Assembly (NCBI GenBank): GCA_017963805.1
Contig: JAGCTE010000006.1
Span: forward strand, 5,118-69,117
DNA: 64,000 nt
Direction: 5' to 3'
Origin: a bacterium
GTDB lineage: Bacteria > Auribacterota > UBA3054
Below are positions 9,462-64,000 of the stretch, in pieces (position 1 is the first letter of the stretch; each line of letters opens with the position of its first letter). Below the pieces are notes generated by a model that saw only the letters and a program-made list of their open reading frames with translations, searched no databases and had not been told where the DNA came from. Both the position numbers and the translations under genes were made by a program.

Positions 9462-9617
9462 TATGTGTTTCCCTTCCCTTGATTCAGGGGGTTGTGATTA
9501 ATTAGGATCTTCGTCCATTTTGATTTGGGAGATTCAGTTTATCATAGTGTTATCATTTTTGCAACTCGGCCTGTTTCTTTAGGGAAGGTCACGGGGAAGA
9601 AAAAAGACGTTGGCTTT

Positions 9618-9626
9618 TGGTATAAT
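9618..9626 (+). promoter_or_regulatory. Extended -10 promoter (TGgTATAAT) for the partner-switching operon.
   Basis: tggTATAAT at 9618..9626 matches TGnTATAAT. A Shine-Dalgarno aaggag lies ~6 nt before the ATG at 9656. No good -35, which is typical of extended -10 promoters. Confidence 0.45.
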
Positions 9627-9655
9627 TTAGGTGAATCTTTTCACAAAGGAGCTTT

Positions 9656-9955
9656 ATGACTTATGAGATCACCTCTCCTCCTCCGGATCTGACGGTCACC
9701 GTCCAGGGCCGCCTCGACACGCTTACCTCCCCCAAACTGGAAAGCGAACTGGAGCCGAGCATCGCCCAGGCCAAGAACCTTGTTCTGGATGTTACCGGCG
9801 TGGATTACCTCTCCAGCGCCGGGCTGCGCCTGCTTCTTACCTTGCAGAAACGTTTCAAAAGGGAAGGCGGCAGCTTCAAGCTTCGCGGCATCCAGCCGGG
9901 CGTGATGGAGATACTCCGCATGACGGGCTTTTTGAAGATCCTATCCGTTGAATAA
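9656..9955 (+). CDS. STAS-domain anti-sigma-factor antagonist (SpoIIAA/RsbV-like).
   Basis: 99 aa. Conserved phosphorylatable Ser context DYLSSAGLRLLL. First gene of a 3-gene operon with a PP2C phosphatase and an anti-sigma kinase. Confidence 0.8.
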   Translation: MTYEITSPPPDLTVTVQGRLDTLTSPKLESELEPSIAQAKNLVLDVTGVDYLSSAGLRLLLTLQKRFKREGGSFKLRGIQPGVMEILRMTGFLKILSVE

Positions 9956-14843: not shown

Positions 14844-15679
14844 GGCAAAAGCTCCTCGGTGTAATTGTTGATCAAATGTGTTTTGGTGTAGCGCTCCCCG
14901 ATCTCCAGCCAGCGCAGGATGAGCTTCCTGTGGCGGCGGAATTCGGTTTCCTTGTATTCGTTGGTCAATACGCCGGCTAAGCGGACCGCCGTTTCCATGT
15001 CGCCTGCTTTTAAGGCGCAGACGCTTCCCAAGAAAAGGCCGTCCGCCCCGACTTTCCTTTCCAGGGCGAAGAAAAGGTGCGGCGGCAGAAGGTAAAAGAG
15101 CGCGTTCCTATAATCTTCCTCCCCGTATAGGATCCGGCCCATGTAGTAATGCCAGAGCGCCGCCCCTTCGTCGGAGCCTTTTTCCCACGCATACCTTTCC
15201 AAAGCCTCCCTTGCCTTTTTGAGATCCCCGGTCTTCCAATAGCAGATCCCCAGATACAGTCCCGCCATTTCTTCCTGGCTCTTCAAAAAATAGCGCTTGG
15301 CTTCCTGATAGCGAGAGCAGTTGAAAAGCAGTTTCCCGTAGATATAATACGGCGCCTCCGCTCCGCCCGGCCAGCTTTCGGCCCAGGAATAAAGCTCCCA
15401 CAATTCATGCCCCCTTTCCAGCGCTCGTTTTCTTTTCGGTCCTTTGCGGTAAACCGTTTCCGAAAGCTCACGAAGCTCTACCGGATCGCTTAGCCTCAGT
15501 TTCGTCACCTGCTCCTTTTTCGCCCGGCATTTCATAAGGGATCCGTCCTTGGCGTAGCGCTCGTAAACGATCGCGTTCTCCTCGTGGGTCAGCAGTCTTC
15601 CGCTGAAACTCTGCCCGGACTGCAGCGTCAGCCTTATCGGCAGCGCAACGGACAGCAATATCCAATAGGGCTTTCTCAT
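14840..15679 (-). CDS. TPR-like repeat protein immediately upstream of exbB.
   Basis: Helical TPR-like repeats (YYMGRILYGEEDYRNALFYL; YLGICYWKTGDLKKAREALERY). The start was chosen at MRKPYWILLSVALP (signal-like) so it does not overlap the upstream TPR gene. Confidence 0.5.
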   Translation of the reverse strand: MRKPYWILLSVALPIRLTLQSGQSFSGRLLTHEENAIVYERYAKDGSLMKCRAKKEQVTKLRLSDPVELRELSETVYRKGPKRKRALERGHELWELYSWAESWPGGAEAPYYIYGKLLFNCSRYQEAKRYFLKSQEEMAGLYLGICYWKTGDLKKAREALERYAWEKGSDEGAALWHYYMGRILYGEEDYRNALFYLLPPHLFFALERKVGADGLFLGSVCALKAGDMETAVRLAGVLTNEYKETEFRRHRKLILRWLEIGERYTKTHLINNYTEELLP

Positions 15680-21418: not shown

Positions 21419-21495
21419 GCGCCCGTGGCTCAATTGGATAGAGCGTTTGGCTACGGACCAGAAGGTTAGGGGTTCGAGTCCCTTCGGGCGTACCA
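21419..21495 (+). tRNA. tRNA-Arg (anticodon ACG), CCA encoded.
   Basis: Hand-folded cloverleaf. Acceptor stem GCGCCCG/CGGGCGT (one G-U pair). D-arm GCTC-AATTGGATA-GAGC. Anticodon arm TTTGG-CTACGGA-CCAGA, so anticodon ACG. T-arm with GTTCGAGTC. Ends ACCA. Confidence 0.85.
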
Positions 21496-21532
21496 TATTT
21501 TCCGCCGGAGTTTCCGCTCCGGCGGTTTTTTT
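21438..21532 (+). repeat. 95-bp direct repeat, copy 1. It comprises the 3' part of tRNA-Arg (D-loop to CCA) plus the downstream terminator. It is identical to 28363..28457.
   Basis: The atagagcgtttggctacggaccagaagg...ccggcggttttttt stretch is identical in both places. The flanks diverge immediately outside it. Confidence 0.9.
21502..21532 (+). terminator. Rho-independent terminator after tRNA-Arg (ccgccggag-tttccg-ctccggcgg + T7).
   Basis: Perfect 9-bp GC-rich stem immediately followed by ttttttt. Confidence 0.7.
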
Positions 21533-27171: not shown

Positions 27172-28140
27172 TTACTCCTCCTTTTCCTTTAAGGATTCTG
27201 AGATAGCTTTCCTTACATCTTCGAATTCATATTCTTCCTTTTCGGGAAGTCTGTAATACCAGTAATTGTGATCGGGATGCTCAAAATAGCTTTCCATTTC
27301 TCTATGCCAATTAGGCATTTGTTCCATTACCCATGGTTCAAGCCGCATCTTACCATTAGCCAAGGCTCGTTCTATGCGCGCCCAACCTTCGGCATCTTGG
27401 AGGGTATATTTTTCTCGATTTGTTTCCCACCATTTTGCGTAATCTTTTCCTATTTGCGGATATCTATAGCCCTTTTGGAAAGGCTTTATAACCGCTTCTA
27501 AACTCTTGTCTCCATTTAGAAGCTCTTTGAAAATATACGGAAAGATATGATATCCCATGGAAGTAATGTCGCTGATAAGAAAAGACAAAATGAACTCCCT
27601 CGGATTTTCCCTCCTGTTTTCCTCCTGTCAGCAAGCATACCAGGCCTGCCAAATTTTTGGCATGTGTTTTCTTCCATATACGTACCAGAAATAATACAAA
27701 TCATCGGCACAGAAGATCCTATCGTCCTCTTTGCAATGGAACCAGGAGAAGGCCATGCATTTTGGCGCTTCATAGCCAAATTGCAAACCGCCGTGAATTC
27801 GCATCTGCTTTAAAACAGCTTCTGCCACTGTTCCAGTGGCGTACCCGTTACCGTCACAATATATTCTGGTCTCGACATCTATGCCCCAGCCGTCTTCTAC
27901 CAACTCAGTTAATTTTTCCCAAGCCTCAGAAGGCGACAAACTTTGCAACTGAATACGCGCCTCAAAACCCTCTTTGAACTGTTGTTTAATTTCACCAGGA
28001 TGCTTGTCCCAAGAAAAATCTTCCTTTTCAAAGATAACTACAGGCGTGTTCTCGGCCTTGATGAGCAAATTTGTATATGCCGCCGTCTCTATTCCAAAAA
28101 CCGGAATGGATAAGCATAAACATAAAAGCATTTTCTTCAT
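27172..28140 (-). pseudogene. Family-C secreted protein, copy C1, interrupted by a single in-frame TGA at a conserved Trp codon (28140..27631 plus 27627..27172).
   Basis: ORFs 27628..28140 and 27172..27588 are in the same frame. Across the junction the sequence reads WYAC*QEENRR...GYHIFPYIF, versus intact paralog C2 WYRCWQEENSR...GFYIFPYLA. The TGA at 27628..27630 replaces the TGG that all other copies have. Confidence 0.6.
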
Positions 28141-28362: not shown

Positions 28363-28457
28363 ATAGAGCGTTTGGCTACGGACCAGAAGGTTAGGGGTTC
28401 GAGTCCCTTCGGGCGTACCATATTTTCCGCCGGAGTTTCCGCTCCGGCGGTTTTTTT
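28363..28457 (+). repeat. 95-bp direct repeat, copy 2. A 5'-truncated tRNA-Arg fragment plus terminator copy (att-like right end).
   Basis: Identical to 21438..21532. It lacks the tRNA acceptor 5' strand and D-stem, so it is not a functional tRNA. Confidence 0.9.
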
Positions 28458-39150: not shown

Positions 39151-40518
39151 GTGAACGACTATCAGGGAATGTGGGAGAAAGTCCTGGAGCTGGTGAAGCA
39201 TTCCACCGATCCAATGGTCTTTTCGGCTTTCTTCTCTTCTGTTGAACCTGTCAATTTTGCGGATGGCCTCTTTTCTATTCGTACCAACAACGCGTTGACT
39301 GCGGAGTATGTGAAGAAGAACCTGGGCTCCTTCATCGAGGAGAATCTCTCGAAGGAAGCCGGATCTCCCGTCACTTTGAAAGTCATCGTCAACGGTGAGC
39401 CGGAAGAAGAGAGCGCCCCGTCACCCGTTTCTCCTGATAGTGAAGTTAAGGAACCCGTTTTGCGCGCCCAGGAACCTCCGAAACTGAACCGCAATTACGT
39501 TTTCTCAAATTTCATTATCGGTCCTTCGAACCAGTACGCTCACGCCGCCGCCTATGACGTGGCCAACAATCCCGGCGTTTCCTACAATCCGCTTTTCATC
39601 TACGGCGGCTCCGGGCTCGGCAAAACGCACCTTATGCAGGCGATCGGCAACGCCATCTACGAAAGGGACAACAGCAAAAGGATCCTCTACATCACTTGCG
39701 AGAACTTCTGCTCCGATTTCCAGGCTTCCCTTTCCTTCAAGAACAACGTGCATCAGTTCAGGGAAAAATACCGCTCCAACTACGACGTCATTCTTATCGA
39801 CGACGTGCAGCATCTCTCCTTGGTGAACCGCACTCAGGACGAGTTCTTCCAGCTCTTCGAGTATCTTTTCGCCAACAATTGCCAGATCGTCATGACCTGC
39901 GACAAATCCCCGAAGGAACTGAAGAACATCAGCGACAGGCTCATTACGCGCTTCGAGTGGGGCGTGGTCGCCGACATTCAGCCGCCTGATTTCGAGACGC
40001 GCCAGGCCATCATCAAGAAGAAATGCCAGGACCGCGGTTTCAAGATCGACGACGACGTCTGCTCTTTCCTCGCCGGCAAGATCCAGAATCATGTCAGGGA
40101 AATTGAGGGCGTGCTCACAAGACTCAGGATCTACGCTTCCGTCCAAAACCAGCCCATCTCCATCAAGCTGGCGAAGGAATGCATGAAGGAATACGTTTCC
40201 GACCAGAACATTTCCCTGGACGTCATCAAGCGCGCGGTCGCCGCTTATTTCGACATAAGCCTAAGCGACCTCACCTCCCACAGAAGGCCGAAAAACATCG
40301 CGAAACCGAGGCAATTGGCCATGTTCCTCTGCCGTTCCATGACCAACAGCTCGCTTAACGAAATAGCCGCTTCTTTCGGCGGAAAAGATCACACGACGGT
40401 CCTTTACGCCTGCAAGAAAATAGAGGAAACGAAAAACAGCGACGACGAGCTTAGTTTCCAAATAGACGCTCTGAAAAAGTACATCATGAAAAATCGTCGG
40501 GAAGAATCTGACAGATGA
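39151..40518 (+). CDS. dnaA: Chromosomal replication initiator DnaA (GTG start).
   Basis: AAA+ Walker A GGSGLGKTHLMQAIGN and Walker B ILIDDVQHL. C-terminal DNA-binding domain block ASFGGKDHTTVLYACKKIEE. Confidence 0.9.
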   Translation: MNDYQGMWEKVLELVKHSTDPMVFSAFFSSVEPVNFADGLFSIRTNNALTAEYVKKNLGSFIEENLSKEAGSPVTLKVIVNGEPEEESAPSPVSPDSEVKEPVLRAQEPPKLNRNYVFSNFIIGPSNQYAHAAAYDVANNPGVSYNPLFIYGGSGLGKTHLMQAIGNAIYERDNSKRILYITCENFCSDFQASLSFKNNVHQFREKYRSNYDVILIDDVQHLSLVNRTQDEFFQLFEYLFANNCQIVMTCDKSPKELKNISDRLITRFEWGVVADIQPPDFETRQAIIKKKCQDRGFKIDDDVCSFLAGKIQNHVREIEGVLTRLRIYASVQNQPISIKLAKECMKEYVSDQNISLDVIKRAVAAYFDISLSDLTSHRRPKNIAKPRQLAMFLCRSMTNSSLNEIAASFGGKDHTTVLYACKKIEETKNSDDELSFQIDALKKYIMKNRREESDR

Positions 40519-40524
40519 AAAAAA

Positions 40525-40553
40525 GAGACCCTGAAAAACAGGGTCTTTTTTTT
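40525..40553 (+). terminator. Rho-independent terminator after dnaA (agaccctg-aaaaa-cagggtct + T8).
   Basis: Perfect 8-bp stem followed by tttttttt. Confidence 0.7.
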
Positions 40554-40910
40554 GACATTTTCTCCACAGTTTTTTCTCAGGTTAAAAATGGATCCAATAA
40601 AGTGTGAGTATTTTGAGAATAAAATCGGCCGGTTATCCACCTGTTGAAAAGAGGCCCTTTTTTCACTTCCATATTCACAGCTTTTTCAAAGCTCGAAAAT
40701 GTATATCATATTTAAACAAGCAAATTTATATAAATTTTTCTATCAACTCACAACCCATAATGATAATAATTCTTTAATAGATCTATAAATGATTTTTAAC
40801 AGTACCTTGTGTAAGAACTTGTAGGAATATGATTACACACAGGAAAAAGAAAGAGGAAATATGGTAAAATAGCTTACCTTGAAAATTAACCTCAATACAA
40901 ATTCAATCTT
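40554..40910. other. Candidate oriC. The dnaA-dnaN intergenic region holds a DnaA box (TTATCCACc at 40633..40641) and a ~200-bp strongly AT-rich DNA-unwinding element (about 40680..40880).
   Basis: AT-richness is striking against a ~58% GC background. The location is the classical dnaA-dnaN spacer. The DnaA box was read directly. Confidence 0.55.
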
Positions 40911-42005
40911 ATGAAATTCACTTGCGCCATTTCCGACCTGCGCGACGCCGTGCAGCTTCTGCAGCCTGTCTGTTCAAACAAACCGGCTTTCCCAATAGTA
41001 GCCAATATTCTGATCCGCACGAAGGAAAATTCCGTCGAGCTAACCGGCACAGATCTTGACATCACAATAAAGACTTCCATCGAGGCTTCCGTGGAAAAAG
41101 AAGGCGAGACCACCGTTCCCGTCCGCTACATGAGAGACACTTTGATGAAGATCAAAAGCGTCGCCCAGATCAGCGTGGAAGTCGATGAGAACAACGTGAT
41201 AAAGATCACGGCCGGCGAAAGGATCAAATGTAACTTGAGAGGCGTGGCCGCCGCCGACTTCCCCTCCTTCCCGGTCCTCAGCGAATGCGAATCCGTTTCC
41301 ATTCCCGCCAAGGAATTCTCGAAGATGCTCCGCTACACCGGCTACGCCATGAGCCATGACGAGCAGCGTTACATTCTGAACGGCATCTGCTTCTCTTTCG
41401 GAGAACAGCTGGACGTCGTGGCTACCGACGGCAGAAGGCTTGCCAAATACACCGTGCCTGAGATCAAAACGGAAAAAGTCAGCCAGATCATCATTCCTGT
41501 AAAAGCCATCAACATGATGCAGCAGCTTCTCGCGGGCGACGATCCCGTTTCCATGCGCTTCTCGTCTTCTCAGGTCGAAATAATCGTCGGGCGCAACACG
41601 CTTGTCGCGCGTCTGATGGACGGCCATTATCCCGATTACAAGCAGGTCCTGCCGAAAAACAAATCTTTCTCCTTGACTTTGAATTCCGGCGATTTCTCCA
41701 ACGCTGTCGAGCTCGCCTCCGTCGTCACGGACAAAAACAAACAGGGCGTCGTCAAACTGAGCCTGGCGGCCGGGAAGATGAAAGTCTCCGCCCAGACGGC
41801 CGACATCGGCGAAAACAGTTCCGAACTTGAGACCGAGTACGCCGGCGAACCGATGGACATTTCCTTCAACCCGACTTTCCTTCTCGACGTTTTCAGGAAC
41901 ATCGACGAGACGGAAGTCACGATGGACGTCATAAACCCCATCAGCCCGACCGTCATAAGAACCACGGACAACTTCATCAGCATCATCATGCCGATGCGCT
42001 TCTAA
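40911..42005 (+). CDS. dnaN: DNA polymerase III beta sliding clamp.
   Basis: 364 aa. Three-domain clamp pattern starting MKFTCAISDLRDAVQLLQPV. Located directly after dnaA. Confidence 0.85.
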   Translation: MKFTCAISDLRDAVQLLQPVCSNKPAFPIVANILIRTKENSVELTGTDLDITIKTSIEASVEKEGETTVPVRYMRDTLMKIKSVAQISVEVDENNVIKITAGERIKCNLRGVAAADFPSFPVLSECESVSIPAKEFSKMLRYTGYAMSHDEQRYILNGICFSFGEQLDVVATDGRRLAKYTVPEIKTEKVSQIIIPVKAINMMQQLLAGDDPVSMRFSSSQVEIIVGRNTLVARLMDGHYPDYKQVLPKNKSFSLTLNSGDFSNAVELASVVTDKNKQGVVKLSLAAGKMKVSAQTADIGENSSELETEYAGEPMDISFNPTFLLDVFRNIDETEVTMDVINPISPTVIRTTDNFISIIMPMRF

Positions 42006-49788: not shown

Positions 49789-50976
49789 ATGAAAAAAGCA
49801 TTGGCTTTGTTTTTGCTCATAGCCTGCACCAGTCTTTTCGCGGAAGACGTCTCCGTAAAGCCCGCGGGTGAAGGCACCGCGGAAAGTCCCTATTTGTTCG
49901 ACAGCTTGGAAAACTTTTTCTGGCTAAGAAAACAAACCTCCGAAATGGATCCCAACGTTCCGGTCTATTGCAAGCAGATAAAAGACATCGACGCCAGCGC
50001 CACGCAGCAAGGCGGCGATTACGCATGGTCGGACATAAACTTTTCCCAAAACAACCTTTTCGTCTACGATGGTCAAGAATATACTATCTACGGTCTTGAA
50101 CCGAACGAAAAAGGCGCCCTTTTCGGCACCGGCTACATGCAGCTCAAAAACATCCGAATACAAGGCGCGGAAGGGATCAAGACCTGCGCTTTGGCGAAAA
50201 ACTTATCTTCAGACAAAAGCAGAAACGGCTGTTTTGAGAATTGCTATATCAAAGGGCTTTTGGTAGAGACGCCAGCATTAGCAGATACAGTTAGAGGCAT
50301 GTTCATAAAAATCGAAGATTGTATCGTTGAAGCGGACATAGAAATAAAAAACGAGAAAACATCAAGCGGCGCTTTAATAAACTTTATGTACATTAAGGGA
50401 GGAACAAACAGCGTAAGAAAAACTTGTTTTAAGGGAAAAGTAAAAACAAAACCTCTATCGCACGTTTGTGGGTTAACGGTAACTTTGACATTAGGAAGCG
50501 TGCTTAACAACACCGAACTTAAAATAGAAGATTGCTACACGGATCTAACCGTGGAATGCGATCCTGATGACAGACATACCGTCACCGGACTAATAGGCGC
50601 TGCGGATATGAGCATTTACTCGAACGTAGTTTTGAGTATCGAGCGTTGCTACACGACGTGCGAGGCAAGCGAAAGCATGGATTATGGCGCTGCATACATT
50701 TATCAACTGACAAATACTGTCAACACGTTGAACATAAAGGGCTGTTATTACAGAGAGGCTCCACATTTCACCGACGATTACGCGATCGGAAAGACCGATG
50801 AGGAAATGAAGCAACAGGCCACTTTTGAAAACTGGGACTTTGAGAATGTCTGGGACATCGACGAAGGCAAAACCATGCCTTATTTCATATCCGAACTTCC
50901 CGAACCGACAGGAATGGCAATTATGTTTTTGATGCTTCTAGTAAAAATCGGAGACTCTAAAATAACAAAAAAATAA
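49789..50976 (+). CDS. Family-A GLUG-like repeat surface protein with a PEP-CTERM-like anchor, copy A2.
   Basis: Start taken at MKKALALFLLIACTSLFA (signal peptide; the ORF track starts 19 codons earlier). PAGEGTAESPYLFDSLENFFWL N-terminal motif. I(K/E)DCY repeat units. ATFENWDFENVWDIDEGKTMPYFISELPEPTGMAIMFLMLLV tail. Confidence 0.65.
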   Translation: MKKALALFLLIACTSLFAEDVSVKPAGEGTAESPYLFDSLENFFWLRKQTSEMDPNVPVYCKQIKDIDASATQQGGDYAWSDINFSQNNLFVYDGQEYTIYGLEPNEKGALFGTGYMQLKNIRIQGAEGIKTCALAKNLSSDKSRNGCFENCYIKGLLVETPALADTVRGMFIKIEDCIVEADIEIKNEKTSSGALINFMYIKGGTNSVRKTCFKGKVKTKPLSHVCGLTVTLTLGSVLNNTELKIEDCYTDLTVECDPDDRHTVTGLIGAADMSIYSNVVLSIERCYTTCEASESMDYGAAYIYQLTNTVNTLNIKGCYYREAPHFTDDYAIGKTDEEMKQQATFENWDFENVWDIDEGKTMPYFISELPEPTGMAIMFLMLLVKIGDSKITKK

Positions 50977-50995: not shown

Positions 50996-52432
50996 ATGGA
51001 AAAAGGAATCGAAAAAGAACAAACATTCTGGCTTGTTTTGGCGACAAGTTTTGTGATTTTGAAAAGTTTAACTATATATGCCTATCAAACAGAATTTCTG
51101 AATATTATTGGTAATACCAACGTGGCAATTGGAAAATCATCGGTGTCATATGACATTGATTATAATGTTAATGGCAATATTTTGAATTGCCATTCAAGTG
51201 TCTTTGATGTAGAAGGCGATGTCCTTGACGAAAGCGTTCCTGGCAGCCAGAATCTTGATCTGTTTTTTACCGCACCCTCTCATGAGTGCGTTTTGATTAT
51301 TGAGGCTTCAATAACTTATCAAACATATATATATCCATGGGAATATCATGTCCTTTCAGCAACTAGAAATGTAAATGTTCAAAAGCCGTTTTTGCATACC
51401 ATTAGAACAGGCTTAGACGGTGTTACTTATGAAGACAACAGCATAGCTGTGCCCATTCATTGGAATATAGATGATGATGACAAATCCGGGTATGGCGGAG
51501 GCTCCAATGCAGATTATGGGGAAGATTATAGACAATACGAATTTTTGTCTAGCGGTATTGATGACGATTTATATAGTATACAAGCAAGCGTAACAAATGC
51601 CGATTTTAATGCATCTGGTTGTATATTAAAAATAAAAACCCCAGACTCTATGCGTTTGTGGTTTTCTCAAAACAAAAGCACGCTATGCTGTGATACGAAT
51701 AGCATTTATAGAACGCGTTGCAACATTGTAAATTGGTTCAATACTCACGCAAACTCAGCGGGAAACAGGTTGTATGTCGAATGGGTGGTTCCGCCAAACA
51801 CGACTACAAACGAATGTATTGAGTTTTACTGTAACGACATTCAATTTGCCGAATTGCGTTATAAAGGTTATGCCGTTACGGTTGGAGGGCTACCAAACAA
51901 AGCAGAAAGAGCGTTTTTTGAAACAAATTGCTATTTTTTGGATGGGTGCGAATGGCGTATTGCACCCGGCGGCGGAACTCACGTGCATGATCGCAATTCC
52001 TTATCGGAATCTATAGATCCAACCTGGGAGAGATACGGGGAAGAGTTTGTTGCAACAACCAGCGCACCGCTCTGCACAAACATTTATTTTTTGCGTACAG
52101 CAATGTATAATAACTTCCAATGCCGTTGCATCAGCATGGATTCCTTTTATGACCAGAATCACATATTTAGCGAAGCCGACGCAACGGCTTTTTTCACAAT
52201 CTATAATTTCTGGCATGATAATTTCTCAAATATCCGCTTTACAGCGATATCATATACTACAACGGACAGTTTGCGGCACGCAAAATTAATGATGCCAATA
52301 GGGTTAATTGTCATTCTTCTTGGGCAATGGTTTCAAGCCGTTTTTTCAATAGGCCAAAAATCGTTCATAGAGCCGAGCAGCTTGGACCAATTAAAACAAT
52401 TCAAAAAACTTACATTATGGTTCCATCGCTAG
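50996..52432 (+). CDS. Family-B secreted protein, copy B2 (HWNIDDDD / CEW motif family).
   Basis: N-terminal hydrophobic segment. VPIHWNIDDDDKSGYGG and LDGCEWRIAPGG motifs shared with B1 and B3. Markedly AT-rich coding sequence. Confidence 0.6.
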   Translation: MEKGIEKEQTFWLVLATSFVILKSLTIYAYQTEFLNIIGNTNVAIGKSSVSYDIDYNVNGNILNCHSSVFDVEGDVLDESVPGSQNLDLFFTAPSHECVLIIEASITYQTYIYPWEYHVLSATRNVNVQKPFLHTIRTGLDGVTYEDNSIAVPIHWNIDDDDKSGYGGGSNADYGEDYRQYEFLSSGIDDDLYSIQASVTNADFNASGCILKIKTPDSMRLWFSQNKSTLCCDTNSIYRTRCNIVNWFNTHANSAGNRLYVEWVVPPNTTTNECIEFYCNDIQFAELRYKGYAVTVGGLPNKAERAFFETNCYFLDGCEWRIAPGGGTHVHDRNSLSESIDPTWERYGEEFVATTSAPLCTNIYFLRTAMYNNFQCRCISMDSFYDQNHIFSEADATAFFTIYNFWHDNFSNIRFTAISYTTTDSLRHAKLMMPIGLIVILLGQWFQAVFSIGQKSFIEPSSLDQLKQFKKLTLWFHR

Positions 52433-52467
52433 ACCCGGAAGGTAATTCTTTGGAGGAGGAATAAAAT

Positions 52468-53443: not shown

Positions 53444-54655
53444 ATGAAAAAAATATTTGTCTATATTTTTGTGCTTACAGGTTTGGTTTTCGCCGATTGT
53501 GGTCCCATAAAGCCCTTAGGCAAAGGGACACATGAGGATCCTTTTCTTTTTGCGCAGATCGGTAATTTTGCTTGGTTTGCGAACAATTATAAAAAGATCG
53601 AACATGGCCCAATCGTTTATTGCGTGCAGGTAAACGATATTGACGCCACGAAATCAAAAGACTGGTGGCGTTTCCCTATAATGCGGACGGATGATTATAT
53701 TTTGAATTACGATGGGCAAGGATATTCGATCAATAATCTTTGCATGGGCTGGTGTGATAACGAAACTGGCGGACTGTTCACGGAAGGCGTTTTCCAGTTG
53801 AAAAACATAAACCTTATTGAAGCGGAAAAGAACAGATATGAAAACACCGTCGGACTTTTAGTTGGGAAGCTATACGCGGGAAAAGGGCAGGAGGCGTTTG
53901 TCCGAAATTGTCATGTACAGGGAAAAACGACATACTGGCTTGCCAGCGCGTTTATCGGTAAGTTAACGGTTGGAAAAGGCGGCAAAATTGAAATAAGCGA
54001 TTGTTCCGTTGACGCGGAAATCAAAGACGGACCTGCGGGGCTGATCACGACGGTAAACAACCACGGAACATTGACGATTAAAAACACATCGATTAAGTGT
54101 CAAATCGATTATAATATCGATCCTTTGTCTTGGGGCGGAGATGTGAAGACCGCCGGTTTTATAAATCAGATTTTATTGTATAAAGGGTCAAAAACGAATA
54201 TCGAAGATTGCTATTCCGATGTTGATATTAATATTATGGTGAGATCCGCTGTCGCTTCCGGCTTTATAGGCGAATTGTTCAATCAGGACCATAGAGAGAG
54301 AGTCGATGTTGCGATCAAGCGTTGTTATTCTACAGGAACTATAAACAAGACCAACGGTTACGCGACGGCAAGTTTCCTATCCATAGTGGACAATCTCTAT
54401 ACCAACGAAGAGACCATAATTGTAAAGGATTGCTATTACAATTCCACGTCCTTTAAAAAAGGCGATAAATACGCGCTTCCCAAGACAGAAGAAGAGATGA
54501 AACAGTTGGCCACCTTCGAAAACTGGGACTTTGAGAATGTTTGGGACATCGATGAAGGCGAAAGCATGCCTTATTTCATATCCGAAATTCCTGAGCCCTG
54601 CGGAATGCTTGTGCTTCTTCTTTTGCCTTTGTTTTTAAGAAGAAACAAAAATTAA
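53444..54655 (+). CDS. Family-A GLUG-like repeat surface protein with a PEP-CTERM anchor, copy A3.
   Basis: Signal peptide. I(E/K)DCY / I(K)RCY repeat units. ATFENWDFENVWDIDEGESMPYFISEIPEPCGMLVLLLLPLFLRRNKN gives a PEP + TM + basic tail. Confidence 0.7.
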   Translation: MKKIFVYIFVLTGLVFADCGPIKPLGKGTHEDPFLFAQIGNFAWFANNYKKIEHGPIVYCVQVNDIDATKSKDWWRFPIMRTDDYILNYDGQGYSINNLCMGWCDNETGGLFTEGVFQLKNINLIEAEKNRYENTVGLLVGKLYAGKGQEAFVRNCHVQGKTTYWLASAFIGKLTVGKGGKIEISDCSVDAEIKDGPAGLITTVNNHGTLTIKNTSIKCQIDYNIDPLSWGGDVKTAGFINQILLYKGSKTNIEDCYSDVDINIMVRSAVASGFIGELFNQDHRERVDVAIKRCYSTGTINKTNGYATASFLSIVDNLYTNEETIIVKDCYYNSTSFKKGDKYALPKTEEEMKQLATFENWDFENVWDIDEGESMPYFISEIPEPCGMLVLLLLPLFLRRNKN

Positions 54656-58117: not shown

Positions 58118-58416
58118 TATTTTTGCTCCTTGTCTTTTTTCTGATCCTCGGCGGTCTCGGCGTAGTTCATCTGCAGCATGGCGATCTGGTCGTTAAGCAG
58201 GTCAGATTCTTCCTTGGAGAGATTGCCCTTGGATTTTTCCCTCAGCATGACGAGGGAATCGATGAAGTAGCTGGCGCCCTGGAGGTCGACTTTCGTTTCC
58301 TTGGTCTCGGGGTTGGCGATCTTGCCAAGGTTGACCATGGCCAGCTGGGCGAAATTGAAGATCAGCATCACGAAAAGATGGCTGTTGTGATCGTGTTCGT
58401 GTTCATGTTCTGCCAT
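58117..58416 (-). CDS. DUF1844-family small protein.
   Basis: 99 aa. LAMVNLGKIANPETKETKVDLQGASYFIDSLVMLREKSKGNLSKEE matches the DUF1844 pattern. Confidence 0.5.
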   Translation of the reverse strand: MAEHEHEHDHNSHLFVMLIFNFAQLAMVNLGKIANPETKETKVDLQGASYFIDSLVMLREKSKGNLSKEESDLLNDQIAMLQMNYAETAEDQKKDKEQK

Positions 58417-58730
58417 AAATGCTCCTTAATGTTGTATTACCTCGTAAATTATACCATTTGCTTTAGGCGCAAAAAAACAACACCCACCCCCAAGCGAACT
58501 CACGGAAAATGGCGTATAAGGGAAAGCGAGCGCATAATCTGTGAACACGGAGCGAAGGCTTCATTTGTTCTCGGCTAGTTTTTTACAGCGGAAGCATACC
58601 GCCTAATTTTCTCTAAAACGCGATTTAAGGCCGCTCCGGAATCGCCCCTTTGCTTTTTGGCCAAAATCCGCGGAAACGCTGTTTTTGGCGATGCCAAGCG
58701 GCTTAAAAACGCCGTCTCGCACCCGCCCTG

Positions 58731-58759
58731 TTGACTTTTCCTCGTTTTTCTGATACTAT
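58731..58759 (+). promoter_or_regulatory. Sigma70-like promoter TTGACT-17bp-TACTAT, ~290 nt upstream of B3.
   Basis: -35 at 58731..58736 (5/6 match to TTGACA), 17-bp spacer, -10 at 58754..58759 (5/6 match to TATAAT). Confidence 0.4.
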
Positions 58760-59055
58760 GGCTGCACAGGCGCTTTAGCCCTTTCTGTTGTTCACTTAAC
58801 AACCGATCGTAACGCAGAACCCAACACCAAAACGAAACCATGAAAAACACAAGAAATGATTTTATTGGCGCTGAGTCCTTTGTTTGGCGCTACACCAGTC
58901 TACGCTGACGCTATCCTTTCATAAGCCCAGGCTAGTTTCAGCGTTTGTATTTAAAGGCCTCTCCGATACTACTCGCTAGGGCGCAGCTGTGCCCGGACAG
59001 ATCATACCACGCGCTTCGGAAGGCGAGCTCAACAAGTAATCCTTAACTAAAATTT

Positions 59056-61059
59056 ATGAATAGAAAAAGAAAACCTTTATCGCGGATGAAAACGTTTTTC
59101 TCCATTCTGCTCATCCTAGCCTGCGCGCTAGTATCAACATCTATTTGCTTAGCCAACGACGGGTCAGACATCACTATCAGCGGGGAGTCTCCTCGCCATG
59201 GAATTGGCTCCTCGCTTTATACGGCATCTTCAAAAGACGGCGATGTGGTTTCTTGCGATTGGTGGATAACAGATTTTGTAAAATACAATCCAACTTCTAC
59301 CGTAACGCTTGCTGAAGTTGAAAAGCGAGGAGAAGATGCTTACTTAACATTTCATGATTTCGGCTCTGTAACTCTCAAATGCAGAGCCTCAGTTGATATA
59401 AAAGGGGAAAACAAAGACCAATACGGTAGCAGGACAATTGAGTGCAAAAAGCTACCCCCAAACACAACTCCGACACTGAGCATTAATGGCGAAGATTATG
59501 TGTCGCTTAATTCAGAGCACGAATATGTAGCGGAATGTAAAGCGGCTGGAACCCCTACGATAACCTGGGCATATCCGGTCAACCAAACTCATACAGGGGA
59601 AAAAGTAACCATAGAATTCACGGATTTAGGATTCTTTCGATTGAATTGTACTTTAAAGTCTACCGACGCCCAAGGAAACAATGTTCCGGATGTAGACGAC
59701 CACAAAGACATACATGTTCTTTCGCCTGTCGTACTAACAGCGTTGAGAGCAAATTACGAAAATCCCAATGTCGCCAACATCCCCGGAGAAGAAATAGTCA
59801 AGATACATTACAATATTGACGATGATGACGAATCGTGCGAAGAAAACGACTACAACAAGGGTTGCGACTGCCTGCAAACAGCATTTAAGACAGGCAACGA
59901 AAATCCTGATGACGATCTGTGCAAACTTGAGATAAGCTTTGGAAACAACTTCAACGATTTTACAGAAGGAACTGTGTATATCGAAGTCACCAAGGGTTTA
60001 AGGCTTTGGTGTAACAACCTGCGCACAAATGACAATGATATTTTCTTAGGTAAAGATAATAAACCCGAACAAATAGCATTGTCTTTCAGTGTCCCGGCGG
60101 AAAAAACAAAAATTCAAAATATTATAAACAACGGCCTGTATGTTGAAGGCTTAGCTCCGGGTTACAGATACCTAAAGATAAAGTTTGCCGACAAGCAACT
60201 TAAATTGCCGTATTATTGTTACGCGGTTGGAGAACCACAAAACCAGCCGGACCTAACAACAAGGAAATCTTATAAGAAGAATAGCAGTTTCCCTAATCTT
60301 GTTGACTGCGAATGGTGCATAAAAGAGTTATCAAACACAACTTATCTTGATTCATATAACTGCATAGCATATGCTGTTGACCCCAGAAGAGAGGTTTTCG
60401 ACGATAATACTGCTAGTTATGCCACACCTTTTCAAGGGGCTTTCTGGGTAAATACAAACGAGTTCTGGTTAGGAACGCCAGGTTTTGATTCTTGGAACGA
60501 GAACAATTGGCGTATGGACCCGTTTGTATATGAGGTACATATTGCATTAGATGATTGGTCTTCTTTAAAAACAGAATATAGAGTTAAATTTCTAAACCCA
60601 AATATAACGCCATTTATAGCTTTGGATACAAATGATTCTGTATTTTTCCGAGGATTTTCTTTAGCTTATAGAGAATTATTAAAGGATGTTTTAAGAGAGC
60701 ACCCGACTTATATGACACTGACATGGCGTGGTACTTCAATGGCTGTATTTAATAGAGCGGCAGCGACTGATGACATAGATAATTTTTTCACTTTACCAGA
60801 TTTTGCCGCTTCAATTTATAACGGCCATACTCTTGTTGGATGTGATACAAACGATAACAGCAGAATAGTTATGTATTATTCAGAGTATCACGCGGCAAGA
60901 GCATTGTCAAAAACATTTGATTGTAAAAAACTTGGCAAAAGCGCTGATCCAGATTGGAAGATGGCTGTAAGTAAATGCGGAAAGAGACGACAGCTATTGA
61001 TCCATCGCGAAGAACAAGTAGCCCCTTTGTATGGAAAAGTAAAAAGAGCATACAAATAA
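59056..61059 (+). CDS. Family-B secreted protein, copy B3 (largest copy, 667 aa).
   Basis: Signal peptide in MKTFFSILLILACALVSTSICLA. IHYNIDDDDESCEEND and DCEWCIKELS motifs shared with B1/B2. AT-rich. Confidence 0.6.
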   Translation: MNRKRKPLSRMKTFFSILLILACALVSTSICLANDGSDITISGESPRHGIGSSLYTASSKDGDVVSCDWWITDFVKYNPTSTVTLAEVEKRGEDAYLTFHDFGSVTLKCRASVDIKGENKDQYGSRTIECKKLPPNTTPTLSINGEDYVSLNSEHEYVAECKAAGTPTITWAYPVNQTHTGEKVTIEFTDLGFFRLNCTLKSTDAQGNNVPDVDDHKDIHVLSPVVLTALRANYENPNVANIPGEEIVKIHYNIDDDDESCEENDYNKGCDCLQTAFKTGNENPDDDLCKLEISFGNNFNDFTEGTVYIEVTKGLRLWCNNLRTNDNDIFLGKDNKPEQIALSFSVPAEKTKIQNIINNGLYVEGLAPGYRYLKIKFADKQLKLPYYCYAVGEPQNQPDLTTRKSYKKNSSFPNLVDCEWCIKELSNTTYLDSYNCIAYAVDPRREVFDDNTASYATPFQGAFWVNTNEFWLGTPGFDSWNENNWRMDPFVYEVHIALDDWSSLKTEYRVKFLNPNITPFIALDTNDSVFFRGFSLAYRELLKDVLREHPTYMTLTWRGTSMAVFNRAAATDDIDNFFTLPDFAASIYNGHTLVGCDTNDNSRIVMYYSEYHAARALSKTFDCKKLGKSADPDWKMAVSKCGKRRQLLIHREEQVAPLYGKVKRAYK

Positions 61060-61098
61060 AACACAATTAAAATATTCTTCACATTAAGGAAAATTCCT

Positions 61099-62304
61099 AT
61101 GAAAAAATATACCTTATTCATTCTGATGTTTTTAACGGCACTCAACGTTTTTAGTTTAACTCAAGAAGAAAAAGAAAAAATCTATAATTCTATTGTCGCC
61201 GAAGCAAAGCTACCTGAGGATTACAGTAGCTCATCGCTTTTATCTATTTCATATGCTAGAAAAAACACACGTCAATTGCCTCCTGGATTCGATGTTGATG
61301 CATATGTTGAAACTCTTATTGGAACAAATTCCAAGCAAAAAACAAATTTTGTGGGAACGATTTCTAAATTAGAAGCAGACGCCAACAAAGCATCAAAATA
61401 TCTTAATTCTTTGCCGCCTTCAACGCTTATTCCGGCGTTTTATGAGCTAAGATTGGATGGTAAAATACGCGATTCTGTTGATTATTATGCATATATAGAT
61501 CTTGACGAAACCAACGAATATGACAAAGCAGATTTGGTTCGCGTTTTTGAGAATGAAGCGATCGTGCGGAAAAAGAGAGAACTTGCAGGAATTGTTCTCA
61601 GATATTCTCGTTGCGAAGGTTTTATAAAAGGCGACCTCATAGGAATGATCAATCCCAAAGCGTCGTATGAAAGCAATTTTCGCGCATACTGGTGGCTGGA
61701 AGGAAGGAGATTCATGCCTGAGATCTGGAACGTTTGGTATCCCTGCTGGCAAAACGAGATGTCCAGGAAAAAACCTAGGGAGTCGGTGACGGAACAATTG
61801 GTGGAAGACATCGGCTGTTTCGGTACATTTCTCTTTCCACATTTGAACGAAGCGATCAAGGAAGGTGATTATACCCTGACGCCTGTTTTAGAAGAGATTT
61901 CTTATCGCACCGAGGTTGAATTGCCGTCGGCAAAAGAATTCTGCGAATGGTATTCGACCAATAGTTACAAGTATGATTATCCGCCTTGCGAAGGCATAAG
62001 AAAGACGATCGAGAAAGTCAAGGATCCCTATATTCTTTCCGAGCTGAAAGGCGAAGACACGTATGACGATAGGAAAAAATTTGGTGACAAATGGGCGTTT
62101 CACACTTTTGAACGAAATGTGTTCAAGCAAGTCCTCTGGCAAGCGGAAGACTATTACAAGAAGAGGGAATACCCGCCCGATTACTGGTATTACAAGCTGC
62201 CTGACGAAGCGGCTTATGAATATAAGTCAGAGATTCCGAGCTTCAGCGGTTCCACCAACTTCAATAAGGGCTTCCTTAAGAAAATAGAAGAAAAGCGGAA
62301 ATGA
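61099..62304 (+). CDS. Family-C secreted W/Y-rich protein, copy C3.
   Basis: Signal peptide MKKYTLFILMFLTALNVFS. YWWLEGRRFMPEIWNVWYPCWQNEMSRKKP and DYWYYKLPDEAAYEYK motifs, collinear with C2. Confidence 0.6.
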   Translation: MKKYTLFILMFLTALNVFSLTQEEKEKIYNSIVAEAKLPEDYSSSSLLSISYARKNTRQLPPGFDVDAYVETLIGTNSKQKTNFVGTISKLEADANKASKYLNSLPPSTLIPAFYELRLDGKIRDSVDYYAYIDLDETNEYDKADLVRVFENEAIVRKKRELAGIVLRYSRCEGFIKGDLIGMINPKASYESNFRAYWWLEGRRFMPEIWNVWYPCWQNEMSRKKPRESVTEQLVEDIGCFGTFLFPHLNEAIKEGDYTLTPVLEEISYRTEVELPSAKEFCEWYSTNSYKYDYPPCEGIRKTIEKVKDPYILSELKGEDTYDDRKKFGDKWAFHTFERNVFKQVLWQAEDYYKKREYPPDYWYYKLPDEAAYEYKSEIPSFSGSTNFNKGFLKKIEEKRK

Positions 62305-63560
62305 ATAGGCTGCTGTTTGTTTTGCTTTTTTTCGGCTTTGGCGTTTCGGCCGCGTTAGGGGAAGCGCTGTCTTCCAATTTCGTCTTGGACGACAAGGATT
62401 ACGCTTCCATGACAGAAAGGCTGCTGCCTTACTGCGGTGAAGAAGCAAAGGGCTTTTTAGAGGAAAAGCTGCGCTCCGGGAAAGACCTTAAGGACGCGTA
62501 TGAGCTGGCCAGGATAGAAGCGCACCCCTTGCTGGAGCAGGAGCTTGAGAAAAGAAAAGCTCTGCTTGGCAAGGGACGGATAAGGCTGTTGTCATATGAC
62601 GAGATCTGTGACAATGTCAAATATGTCTGGAGCGCCTTCTATCTTCAGAAAAACGGAAAAGGCTTGTCGGTTGAAAAAATGATCGGGGCCTTGAACAAGA
62701 TCGAGGAACTGAAGGAAAGGCTAAAAGACGACAGCGACCAGCTGTATGATATAAACGAATACAGGGATCTGCATCTTCTGCCTGGAATGTCGGGTCAGCT
62801 TTACCAGCTGGCGGAGAAGATATTCTGGCGCGGACACTGCAAAAAGGCCTACCGCTGTATGAATTATTTCCTTTTGCCAGAGAACAAAGACGACTTCTCG
62901 GTAGGGGCGGCGCACTATTATCTCGGCAATCTTCTGGCGCATAGGTGGGACGAACTTGGCTATAAAGCTTCGGACAAAATGGAGCTGGAAGCGCTGCGGC
63001 ATTACATTAAAACGCCGCAGTATAAAACCTGCCTGACATATATAGCGTACTCATATTTTAAAGCGGCGGATATGGCATCCCGTTTCAATGATTACCGGAC
63101 ATCATACGCTTTGGCATCCATGGACGTTCCATGCGTGGATTATGACTATGCAACCGGCCAGCGTCATTACAACGCGGCCCTGGCCAGTTACGAGTTGAAA
63201 AAATTCACAAACTGCGTGCTGCATATCCAGGAAGTGCAGCGGTACTATCCGAGACTTGAAGTGGAATGGCTCTTAAAGCGGATCCCCTATTACGACAAGG
63301 AAAGCCTGTGGAACTGGTGCTTTACGAATAAGCTTAGCGAAGCTGACAGGTACAACGCCGTTGTTGATGCCTTGACAAACGAGACTGCGTGTGTCGAGCT
63401 GGACGAGCTTTACGAAATTCTGACGATAGAATGGCCAAAATCGGCTGATCTGCCGGAAAGCGTAAGGACGAACAGGGTATTGAACAACAAATTCTTCGAG
63501 AATCTGCATAACGAAAATTTGAAAAGATTGCGTCAAAACAAAAAGAGGAGAAAAGAATGA
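62301..63560 (+). CDS. Family-D secreted helical protein, copy D3.
   Basis: Signal peptide. Its C-terminal two-thirds are homologous to D1 (21726..23627). Confidence 0.6.
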   Translation: MNRLLFVLLFFGFGVSAALGEALSSNFVLDDKDYASMTERLLPYCGEEAKGFLEEKLRSGKDLKDAYELARIEAHPLLEQELEKRKALLGKGRIRLLSYDEICDNVKYVWSAFYLQKNGKGLSVEKMIGALNKIEELKERLKDDSDQLYDINEYRDLHLLPGMSGQLYQLAEKIFWRGHCKKAYRCMNYFLLPENKDDFSVGAAHYYLGNLLAHRWDELGYKASDKMELEALRHYIKTPQYKTCLTYIAYSYFKAADMASRFNDYRTSYALASMDVPCVDYDYATGQRHYNAALASYELKKFTNCVLHIQEVQRYYPRLEVEWLLKRIPYYDKESLWNWCFTNKLSEADRYNAVVDALTNETACVELDELYEILTIEWPKSADLPESVRTNRVLNNKFFENLHNENLKRLRQNKKRRKE

Positions 63561-64000
63561 GAAACACGTTTGGAAAAATATTGTTTTTGGCGGTTGTTTT
63601 CTGCGCCTGCAATTGCTTTTCCGGGCACATAGACATCGTCAACGGAGTGTGGGCGGTCTCCAAGAACATGACGAAGAACCAGGAGATAGGAGGGAAACTA
63701 AGGGAGATAGAGGCGGTTGCCCGGCAGGACACCGACAAGGCGGCCGAGCTTTGCAAGGAGCTGAAAGAGTCGCTTGACGATCCCGAGATCTATACGGACG
63801 ACGGGGAGTATCTGCCACTGGTGCTGGACAGCATGTGGCTGTATTACGCGGCGCATAAAGGTTTGCAGGGAAAAGCTGTGCTTACGGAAGCACAAAGGCT
63901 GATAGAGGAATACGCCGAAAAGGCGGAGGGGCAGAGATATTGTGCGTACAAGTATCTTTATCATCGCATAAGAGGGTATTACTACGGCAAGAAAGACAAT
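63557..64000 (+). CDS. Family-D-related secreted protein, N-terminal fragment, truncated by the right window edge.
   Basis: ATG at 63557 overlaps the D3 stop (ATGA). MRNTFGKILFLAVVFCACNCFSGHIDIVNGVWAVS...CAYKYLYHRIRGYYYGKKDN is collinear with the D1 N-terminus MMKNTFCFFLSFIWASFSLGNIDIQRGVWLVS...FSYKYAQQALRRYYVKQND. Confidence 0.5.
   Translation, partial: MRNTFGKILFLAVVFCACNCFSGHIDIVNGVWAVSKNMTKNQEIGGKLREIEAVARQDTDKAAELCKELKESLDDPEIYTDDGEYLPLVLDSMWLYYAAHKGLQGKAVLTEAQRLIEEYAEKAEGQRYCAYKYLYHRIRGYYYGKKDN

Follow-up and report, generated by a model that had tools for sequence, protein, structure and literature searches.

A four-gene low-GC operon from an uncultured rumen bacterium, with joint exchange between strains of the tail of a putative exported effector and its neighbouring partner gene

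Polymorphic toxin systems were defined by Zhang, de Souza, Anantharaman, Iyer and Aravind in 2012, and their Sec/type II secretion system (T2SS) class is marked by a signal peptide only (PMC3482391). The comparators named here are MafB/MafI, CdiA-CT/CdiI and Rhs-CT/RhsI. We compare with these systems the right-hand end of a 64-kb stretch of bacterial DNA, hereafter called the window (Auribacterota, UBA3054; assembly GCA_017963805.1, contig JAGCTE010000006.1, positions 5,118 to 69,117). The window has a GC content of ∼55% and contains three low-GC stretches, at roughly 22-28 kb (island 1), 50-54 kb (island 2) and 59-64 kb (island 3). Island 3, which runs on the + strand from position 59056 to the end of the window, is an intact low-GC operon of exactly four genes, B3-C3-D3-D4. 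The open reading frames (ORFs) drawn in an earlier note on this DNA, B3, C3, D3 and a partial D4, were all recovered (Table 1). C3 starts 40 bp downstream of B3, and ATGA stop/start overlaps join both C3 to D3 (62301-62304) and D3 to D4 (63557-63560). The exact D3 protein is present on 15 public contigs, and one 105-kb contig from ENA (L001), which shows 2 mismatches to the window in an overlap of 11,700 bases, extends the window to the right. On L001, D4 is complete (307 amino acids (aa), ending at the window equivalent of 64480) and is followed by a terminator hairpin, beyond which lie a convergent M60-like peptidase gene (56-60% GC) and then genes for H+-PPase, YajC and SecDF. No gene for an anchored A protein, of the kind found in islands 1 and 2, follows D4. 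The earlier note was right that this cassette lacks one, and the alternative that it had left open, a plain tandem array that reaches an A gene farther along and shows no mosaicism, does not describe the locus, as the A gene is absent and mosaicism between strains is present.

Compared with strain L004, the window is 99-100% identical at 58400-60248 and 62275-64569. The block between these stretches, which comprises the C-terminal domain of B3 together with C3, is ∼20% different, whereas its flanks contain 0-1 differences per 600-1900 bp. On the left, dense differences begin at 60249 (residue 398 of B3), inside the junction motif VGEPQNQPD; on the right they end at ∼62274, 27 nt before the start codon of D3. 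Synonymous divergence (dS) for each part of the operon is listed in Table 1. The tract is an allelic replacement by recombination between strains and not a region of local fast evolution. A similar division is seen in nine pairs of B proteins, where the Ig region is 90-100% identical and the C-terminal domain 35-71%, and the reverse case was also found: B3 and its relative P0003 share 59% in the Ig region and 75% in the C-terminal domain. Across six loci, identity values for the B C-terminal domain and for the N-terminal half of C are correlated (r 0.88-0.91), whereas those for the B C-terminal domain and for the N-terminal part of B itself are not (r 0.15). The hypervariable patches are confined to residues 451-575 of B, where mean pairwise identity is 18-37% (50-65% elsewhere in B), and to residues 26-100 of C, where it is 12-45% (66-90% in residues 201-375). 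The ratio of non-synonymous to synonymous divergence (dN/dS) is 0.23-0.5 in B and in the N-terminal half of C, and ∼0.1 in the C-terminal half of C, in D3 and in D4.

Our favoured reading, held tentatively since we are close to evenly divided over it, is that B3 is a Sec-exported polymorphic effector and C3 its cognate, likewise exported, neutralising or immunity-like partner. It builds on the observed gene content, conserved order, mobility, mosaicism, co-variation and conserved residues; toxicity, binding, catalysis and the roles of D3 and D4 are what we infer from them. B3 has constant Ig-like presentation domains and an acidic beta domain, followed by a G..NQP junction and a variable DUF7689-type domain. 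According to this model, C3 would bind and neutralise its own B variant in the periplasm or otherwise outside the cytoplasm, and its hypervariable N-terminal segment, which co-varies with the B tail, would pair with that tail; its C-terminal half is strongly conserved. Homologous recombination swaps the block of B tail and C between otherwise identical strains, and D3 and D4 would serve as conserved helical or TPR-like accessory proteins for handling or export. Specific binding of each C to its own B variant would be expected to give rise to this joint exchange of the B tail and C. We favour a polymorphic effector because the features seen here fit the template of polymorphic toxin systems: the exported scaffold is constant, recombination occurs at a junction motif, the C-terminal domain varies around an invariant Cys/His constellation, the adjacent gene co-varies with it, there are several low-GC paralogous loci, and the B-tail/C block is swapped between strains.

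Table 1. Features of island 3 and synonymous divergence between the window and strain L004 (window coordinates unless a contig is named)
Feature	Coordinates	Strand	Basis, description or value
Candidate sigma-70-type promoter, TTGACT-17 nt-TACTAT with TG before it	58731..58759	+	Putative; best site in a scan of the 640-bp intergenic region 5' of B3
B3, exported multidomain protein, 667 aa	59056..61059	+	ORF
Two Ig-like beta-sandwich domains, constant presentation part (B3 residues 38-225)	59167..59730	+	All-beta in model
Acidic beta domain (B3 residues 226-395)	59731..60240	+	Conserved motifs IHYNIDDDD, DDDLCKLE, LRLW, YVEG
Junction motif VGEPQNQPD (B3 residues 391-399), left recombination breakpoint	60226..60252	+	G..[DN]QP kept across the family
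C-terminal domain, divergent DUF7689 (B3 residues 398-667)	60247..61056	+	Invariant E419, N435-C436, H612, W634, K640, H650
Recombination tract, allelic replacement block vs L004	60249..62274	+	405 differences; local identity 41-97%
Hypervariable insert (B3 residues ∼451-575) with ferredoxin-like beta-alpha-beta-beta-alpha-beta subdomain	60406..60780	+	Identity drop and Foldseek
C3, exported 401-aa partner	61099..62304	+	ORF; variable N-terminal half, conserved C-terminal half
C3 hypervariable segment (residues ∼26-100)	61174..61398	+	Pairwise identity
D3, exported 419-aa helical protein	62301..63560	+	Homologous to the C-terminal half of D1
D4, exported TPR-like protein, partial in window	63557..64000	+	Homolog of D2 and of the D1 N-terminal half
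Bidirectional terminator hairpin (long A-tract/stem/T-tract)	L001 12229-12290		3' of D4
dS, B N-terminal part			0.004
dS, B C-terminal domain			0.83
dS, C N-terminal half			0.56
dS, C C-terminal half			0.26
dS, D3			0
dS, D4			0.005

The product of B3 is probably a 657-aa protein that begins at 59086 (MKTFFSIL...), because all gene calls on public contigs start there and strain L004 has a 10-nt insertion at window position 59049, just 5' of the ATG at 59056. A word index of 5.8 billion proteins returned only 21 homologs of B3, all unannotated. The AlphaFold model of full-length B3 (predicted local distance difference test (pLDDT) score 81) consists of a leader, two Ig-like sandwiches, the acidic beta domain and a C-terminal alpha/beta domain. 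The hydrophobic N-terminal leader of B3 ends CLA/NDG and was judged by eye to be a signal peptide; all four island-3 proteins are predicted to be exported. Foldseek matched full-length B3 only to Ig, FN3 and S-layer structures, all of them Ig-like, and a B3 profile run against PDB sequences likewise returned only Hoc/Ig matches, of which that to phage Hoc was weak. H251, N253, D255-257, D285, D287 and L288 are invariant in the acidic beta domain, which may bind calcium. The C-terminal domain modelled alone reached a pLDDT of 90.8; in this model a helix begins at C436 and a strand at H612. Its only Foldseek matches were HMA/ferredoxin-like folds of ∼74 residues, which fall within the hypervariable insert; its core matched no fold in PDB or among viral structures (BFVD) at E < 0.05, hydrolases included. 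In nearly all family members, including distant DUF7689 proteins, the exact C-terminal end is [AFY]-Y-K (residues 665-667 of B3, window 61048-61056), a tripeptide that could be a sorting or recognition signal or just the last strand of the fold.

A hypervariable region that forms a discrete inserted subdomain is also what would be expected of an exposed epitope or receptor tip. B could be part of a surface or secreted complex, an adhesin or an enzyme, whose tip is diversified by phages, host antibodies or protozoan grazers, with C, D3 and D4 as its assembly, chaperone or anchoring partners and no toxin or immunity role. This is the main rival of the effector-partner reading, and we consider it unlikely, though worth keeping in view. 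It agrees with the Ig-like, Hoc-like N-terminal domains of B and with dN/dS staying below 1, and short-type cassettes do pair B and C with PEP-CTERM/GLUG surface proteins, while the catalytically degenerate B1 and B2, which have no Cys and His, keep C neighbours. What it leaves unexplained is the equal hypervariability of the N-terminal segment of C and its swap together with the B tail. Furthermore, the N-C, H and H residues are invariant across very distant relatives, which suggests chemistry rather than display, and island 3 has no anchor motif: a PEP-CTERM signal (PEP motif, transmembrane helix, basic tail) was found in none of its four proteins, nor on the extended contig, whereas A1, A2 and A3 carry these features.

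The C-terminal domain of B3 belongs with a family that Pfam lists as DUF7689 (PF24738). Full-length B3 scored 14.6 bits against this family and its C-terminal domain alone 18.5 bits (E 0.0035, in two stretches), both below the gathering threshold of 22.6, as the domain is interrupted by ∼125-170 inserted residues. An exhaustive hidden Markov model (HMM) search of 1.84 billion representatives with the B3 family profile found 353 relatives. The region that they have in common is the acidic beta domain, which always stands just before DUF7689, and DUF7689 itself scored above threshold in 10 of 10 sampled relatives and in 32 of the 36 members of the alignment. Through this intermediate profile, B3 proved homologous to bona fide DUF7689 members, with which it shares the preceding acidic beta domain and the motifs NC..., HAAR, SK.G and H...Q. 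The hypervariable insert is missing from canonical DUF7689 and from B1 and B2. In the distant relatives DUF7689 lies at the extreme C-terminus, and the N-termini vary (PKD, HYR, Chlam_PMP, FlgD_ig/CHU_C). The searched literature made no mention of DUF7689.

E419, N435, C436, H612, W634, K640 and H650 are invariant in the 36-sequence alignment, and the Cys/His constellation is a candidate active site or metal site of B3. Such a site, the export of all four proteins and a neighbourhood with many glycoside hydrolase and peptidase genes (GH2, a GH120-like beta-helix protein, the M60-like peptidase) would also fit a secreted hydrolase for nutrients or envelope remodelling, with C as a periplasmic inhibitor or maturation factor (zymogen control) and a polymorphism that is neutral or was imported by chance. 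We regard this explanation as improbable. Housekeeping enzymes are not expected on low-GC islets at sites that differ from genome to genome, nor would they be expected to keep alleles as far apart as dS 0.8 in strains that are otherwise identical, and the constant N-terminal part with a variable C-terminal domain in nine pairs of B proteins speaks against it as well.

C3 had no match in Pfam, NCBIfam, PADLOC, PHROG or PDB. Its C-terminal half is rich in Trp and Tyr (YWWLEGRRFMPEIW, WYPCW, YWYY), and the C family comprises 22 word-index homologs, all unannotated, about equal to the number of long-type B proteins (21). One C homolog matched the Rap1a immunity family at E 0.023, a sub-threshold score that we took as chance. 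D3 matched no family or PDB entry; among orthologous operons it is 71-84% identical, with dN/dS ∼0.1. A profile search of PDB chains gave weak TPR matches for D4. No B, C or D protein had a significant PADLOC or PHROGs profile match (E < 0.003), and Pfam and NCBIfam scans of these proteins returned nothing significant, the sub-threshold DUF7689 of B3 being all that was seen.

Genes of the same kinds are arranged as C-B-A-D2-D1 in island 1, A-B-C-A in island 2 and B-C-D3-D4 in island 3, and the earlier note took island 3 for a third copy of the B, C and D families that arose by recombination or shuffling among the cassettes of this genome. The difference in gene order and content holds, and all-against-all BLASTP confirmed that B3 is homologous to B1/B2 and C3 to C1/C2, though very distantly (22-29% identity; B2-B3 27%, E 6e-8; C2-C3 29%, E 3e-28). 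The pairwise identities that the note had wanted range from 22% to 33% for proteins of island 3 against those of islands 1 and 2 and speak for an ancient divergence. At the nucleotide level, only motif-level matches of 52-85 bp were found between island 3 and the other two. Together, these short matches and the low protein identities indicate that the three islands are ancient paralogous types. B3 is indeed the longest B paralog; unlike B1 and B2, it contains a second Ig-like domain and, within its C-terminal domain, an insert of ∼125 aa. The supposed two D-family genes in a row are not two of a kind: D4 aligns to residues 2-283 of D1 and to D2, D3 aligns to residues 287-633 of D1, and D3 and D4 do not match each other, so that two families are fused in D1. 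This fusion of D4-like and D3-like parts, the differing gene orders and a 145-nt repeat common to A2 and A3 at 80% identity could be taken as traces of shuffling. For island 3, however, shuffling is already contradicted by the negligible DNA similarity, the low protein identity and a gene order that is kept across genomes, and island 1 was inserted independently, at a tRNA gene, and has 95-nt direct repeats of its own; we therefore judge shuffling very improbable. Recombination breakpoints, which the note had also suggested looking for, do exist (at ∼60249 and ∼62274), but they lie between strains and not among cassettes, and the likeness to polymorphic toxin systems that it had remarked on is apt by way of the strain-level replacement of the B-tail/C module. 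Island 3 is accordingly a stable type of operon, anciently paralogous to islands 1 and 2 and not recently recombined from them.

Both island 1 and island 2 show signs of decay. B1 and B2 fall in a short clade in which Ser replaces C436 and H612 is often missing, and of the three copies only island 3 is intact and might have catalytic competence. C1 has a single in-frame stop codon (window 27628-27630), and the proper C-terminus of B2 lies in another frame (52222-52461), which implies a frameshift near 52.2-52.4 kb. The direct repeat of A2 and A3 (50772-50916 and 54463-54607) covers the C-terminal FENWDFENVW...PEP-CTERM region and is the sole sizeable nucleotide repeat of island 2.

The B-C-D3-D4 order recurs in at least five other rumen-metagenome loci (L007/L008, L009, L011/L012 and L013), whose sample or record names suggest an origin in ruminant gut metagenomes (yak omasum, water-buffalo reticulum). 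Protein sizes in these loci are 643-682 aa for B, 375-401 for C, 411-419 for the D3 type and 303-320 for the D4 type. Each copy of the operon lies between different housekeeping genes at an unrelated chromosomal site and has 36-44% GC, compared with 50-58% in the flanks. L009 carries the island at a leuA/FGE-sulfatase site that is empty in the related genome L011 (L011 3595-3742). Thus, the island-3-type operon is horizontally mobile. In L012 the operon is flanked by a 241-nt direct repeat of 98% identity (9578-9818 and 15273-15513). In L009 a repeat of 116-148 nt, made up of the 3' end of leuA and the terminator, occurs three times (8236, 14144 and 17905) around two tandem cassettes, the second of which consists of a full-length B'-C' and a remnant of the 3' end of D4. 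On either side of island 1 (C1-B1-A1-D2-D1) stands a copy of a perfect 95-nt direct repeat (21438-21532 and 28363-28457) that corresponds to the 3' 58 nt of tRNA-Arg(ACG) with its terminator hairpin; island 1 is a classic tRNA-integrated islet, and no integrase gene lies inside it. The flanking repeats of L009, L012 and island 1 are therefore long and target-derived, while no direct repeats of at least 14 nt flank island 3, island 2 or L007.

The association of B with C extends to the distant relatives. In four of five distant loci (L015, L016, L017 and L020) a C-family gene lies directly 3' of the DUF7689 gene (hmmsearch E 6e-12 to 6e-8 in a small database; BLASTP 5e-7 for L020), and in the fifth, L019, from a Planctomycetota metagenome-assembled genome (MAG), the contig ends in a 64-aa stub that looks like the N-terminus of these C homologs. 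The genes 5' of DUF7689 encode TPR proteins in several of these loci. It is possible, if on balance doubtful, that DUF7689 and the C family, often with TPR partners, form an unrecognised Sec-exported effector/cognate-partner system of uncultured gut bacteria and at least one Planctomycetota MAG, with a new Cys/His catalytic fold and a specificity that comes from the hypervariable insert, and that the system travels on integrase-less islets which insert at gene 3' ends or terminators and leave target duplications of 95-241 nt. Integrase-less islets with long target duplications raise the question of how the cassettes move. In L019 (4775-10907) the DUF7689 gene adjoins an H+-PPase gene, as is the case for island 3; this is possibly a coincidence.

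The window contains dnaA and dnaN (39151-42005) as well as lpxK, which places the locus on the chromosome, close to the presumed replication origin, of a diderm host. Above 53% identity, DnaA matched only entries that carry the label 'bacterium'. The dnaA and dnaN genes sit between the islands, and all three low-GC islands are at most ∼25 kb from this presumed origin. A scan of the region upstream of B3 found in total no more promoter-like sites than expected by chance; the best of them is listed in Table 1, and TTGACT followed ∼17 nt later by TAnnAT was also seen 5' of B in L007, L009 and L012. The possibility that B is preceded by a conserved leader or RNA was rejected, as the upstream regions align only at the TTGACT box and at the terminators of the upstream genes. 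An Rfam scan of the window detected only tRNA-Arg and its partial duplicate. The convergent M60-like peptidase was rejected as a member of the system, as its GC content is host-like and other loci have different neighbours in its place.

Several points weigh against an effector with a cognate partner or set the operon apart from polymorphic toxin systems. The C-terminal variants of B are all homologous to one another, forming one DUF7689 family that varies mainly in the insert, and are not unrelated toxin domains or folds. Neither the window nor the other loci contained standalone C-terminal or immunity cassettes, and no orphan B-tail or C fragments were found elsewhere in the window. C is atypical for an immunity protein, with ∼400 aa, a signal peptide and one half that is highly conserved; the operon has two extra conserved helical genes (D3 and D4), and known trafficking domains (TPS, PAAR, Rhs/YD, LXG, MafB-N) are all absent. 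B1 and B2 have retained C-type neighbours without the Cys and His, which means that catalysis is not strictly required for the association of B with C, although the stop codon in C1 and the frameshift in B2 qualify this point. The invariant Cys, His, His and Glu of B3 could equally form a metal site, and the co-variation of the B tail with C could be due simply to their lying linked in the same recombination tract.

Should the B tail and C prove to be an effector/immunity pair, one Pfam DUF and three unannotated protein families would gain a function, and a deeply branching lineage of uncultured rumen bacteria would contribute a Sec-dependent polymorphic system. The system would also offer a compact model of how binding specificity diversifies, through a discrete inserted subdomain and a partner segment of ∼75 residues, and the natural allele swap between near-identical strains provides ready cognate and non-cognate pairs.

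Finally, we asked how closely the operon resembles systems that have been described. Papain-like toxin domains such as Tox-PL1 have the signature 'NC, H, D' (PMC3482391). In B3 a helix begins at the Cys of an invariant Asn-Cys, and further downstream a strand begins at an invariant His, but the third residue of B3 would be His, Gln or Glu and not Asp. There was no Pfam papain-like match among the 36 members of the alignment and no Foldseek match of the C-terminal model to a papain-like structure, and the resemblance is only a lead. The nuclease colicins and pyocins (E2/E7/E8/E9) are plasmid- or tailocin-linked, have receptor and translocation domains and are neutralised by cytoplasmic immunity proteins (Im2/7/8/9), in all of which they are unlike B and C, and they have no sequence or fold similarity to the island-3 proteins. 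The likeness lies in the pattern: there, too, homologous effector domains and homologous partners diverge in parallel at a specificity patch, and the catalytic core is kept. With polymorphic toxin systems B3 shares the order of signal peptide, constant presentation domains and variable C-terminal domain, and it has a short junction motif at the recombination site that is analogous to VENN or DPxGL. As in those systems, the co-varying gene (C) always lies immediately downstream of B, several paralogous low-GC loci occur per genome, and the C-terminal domain is replaced together with its partner from strain to strain.

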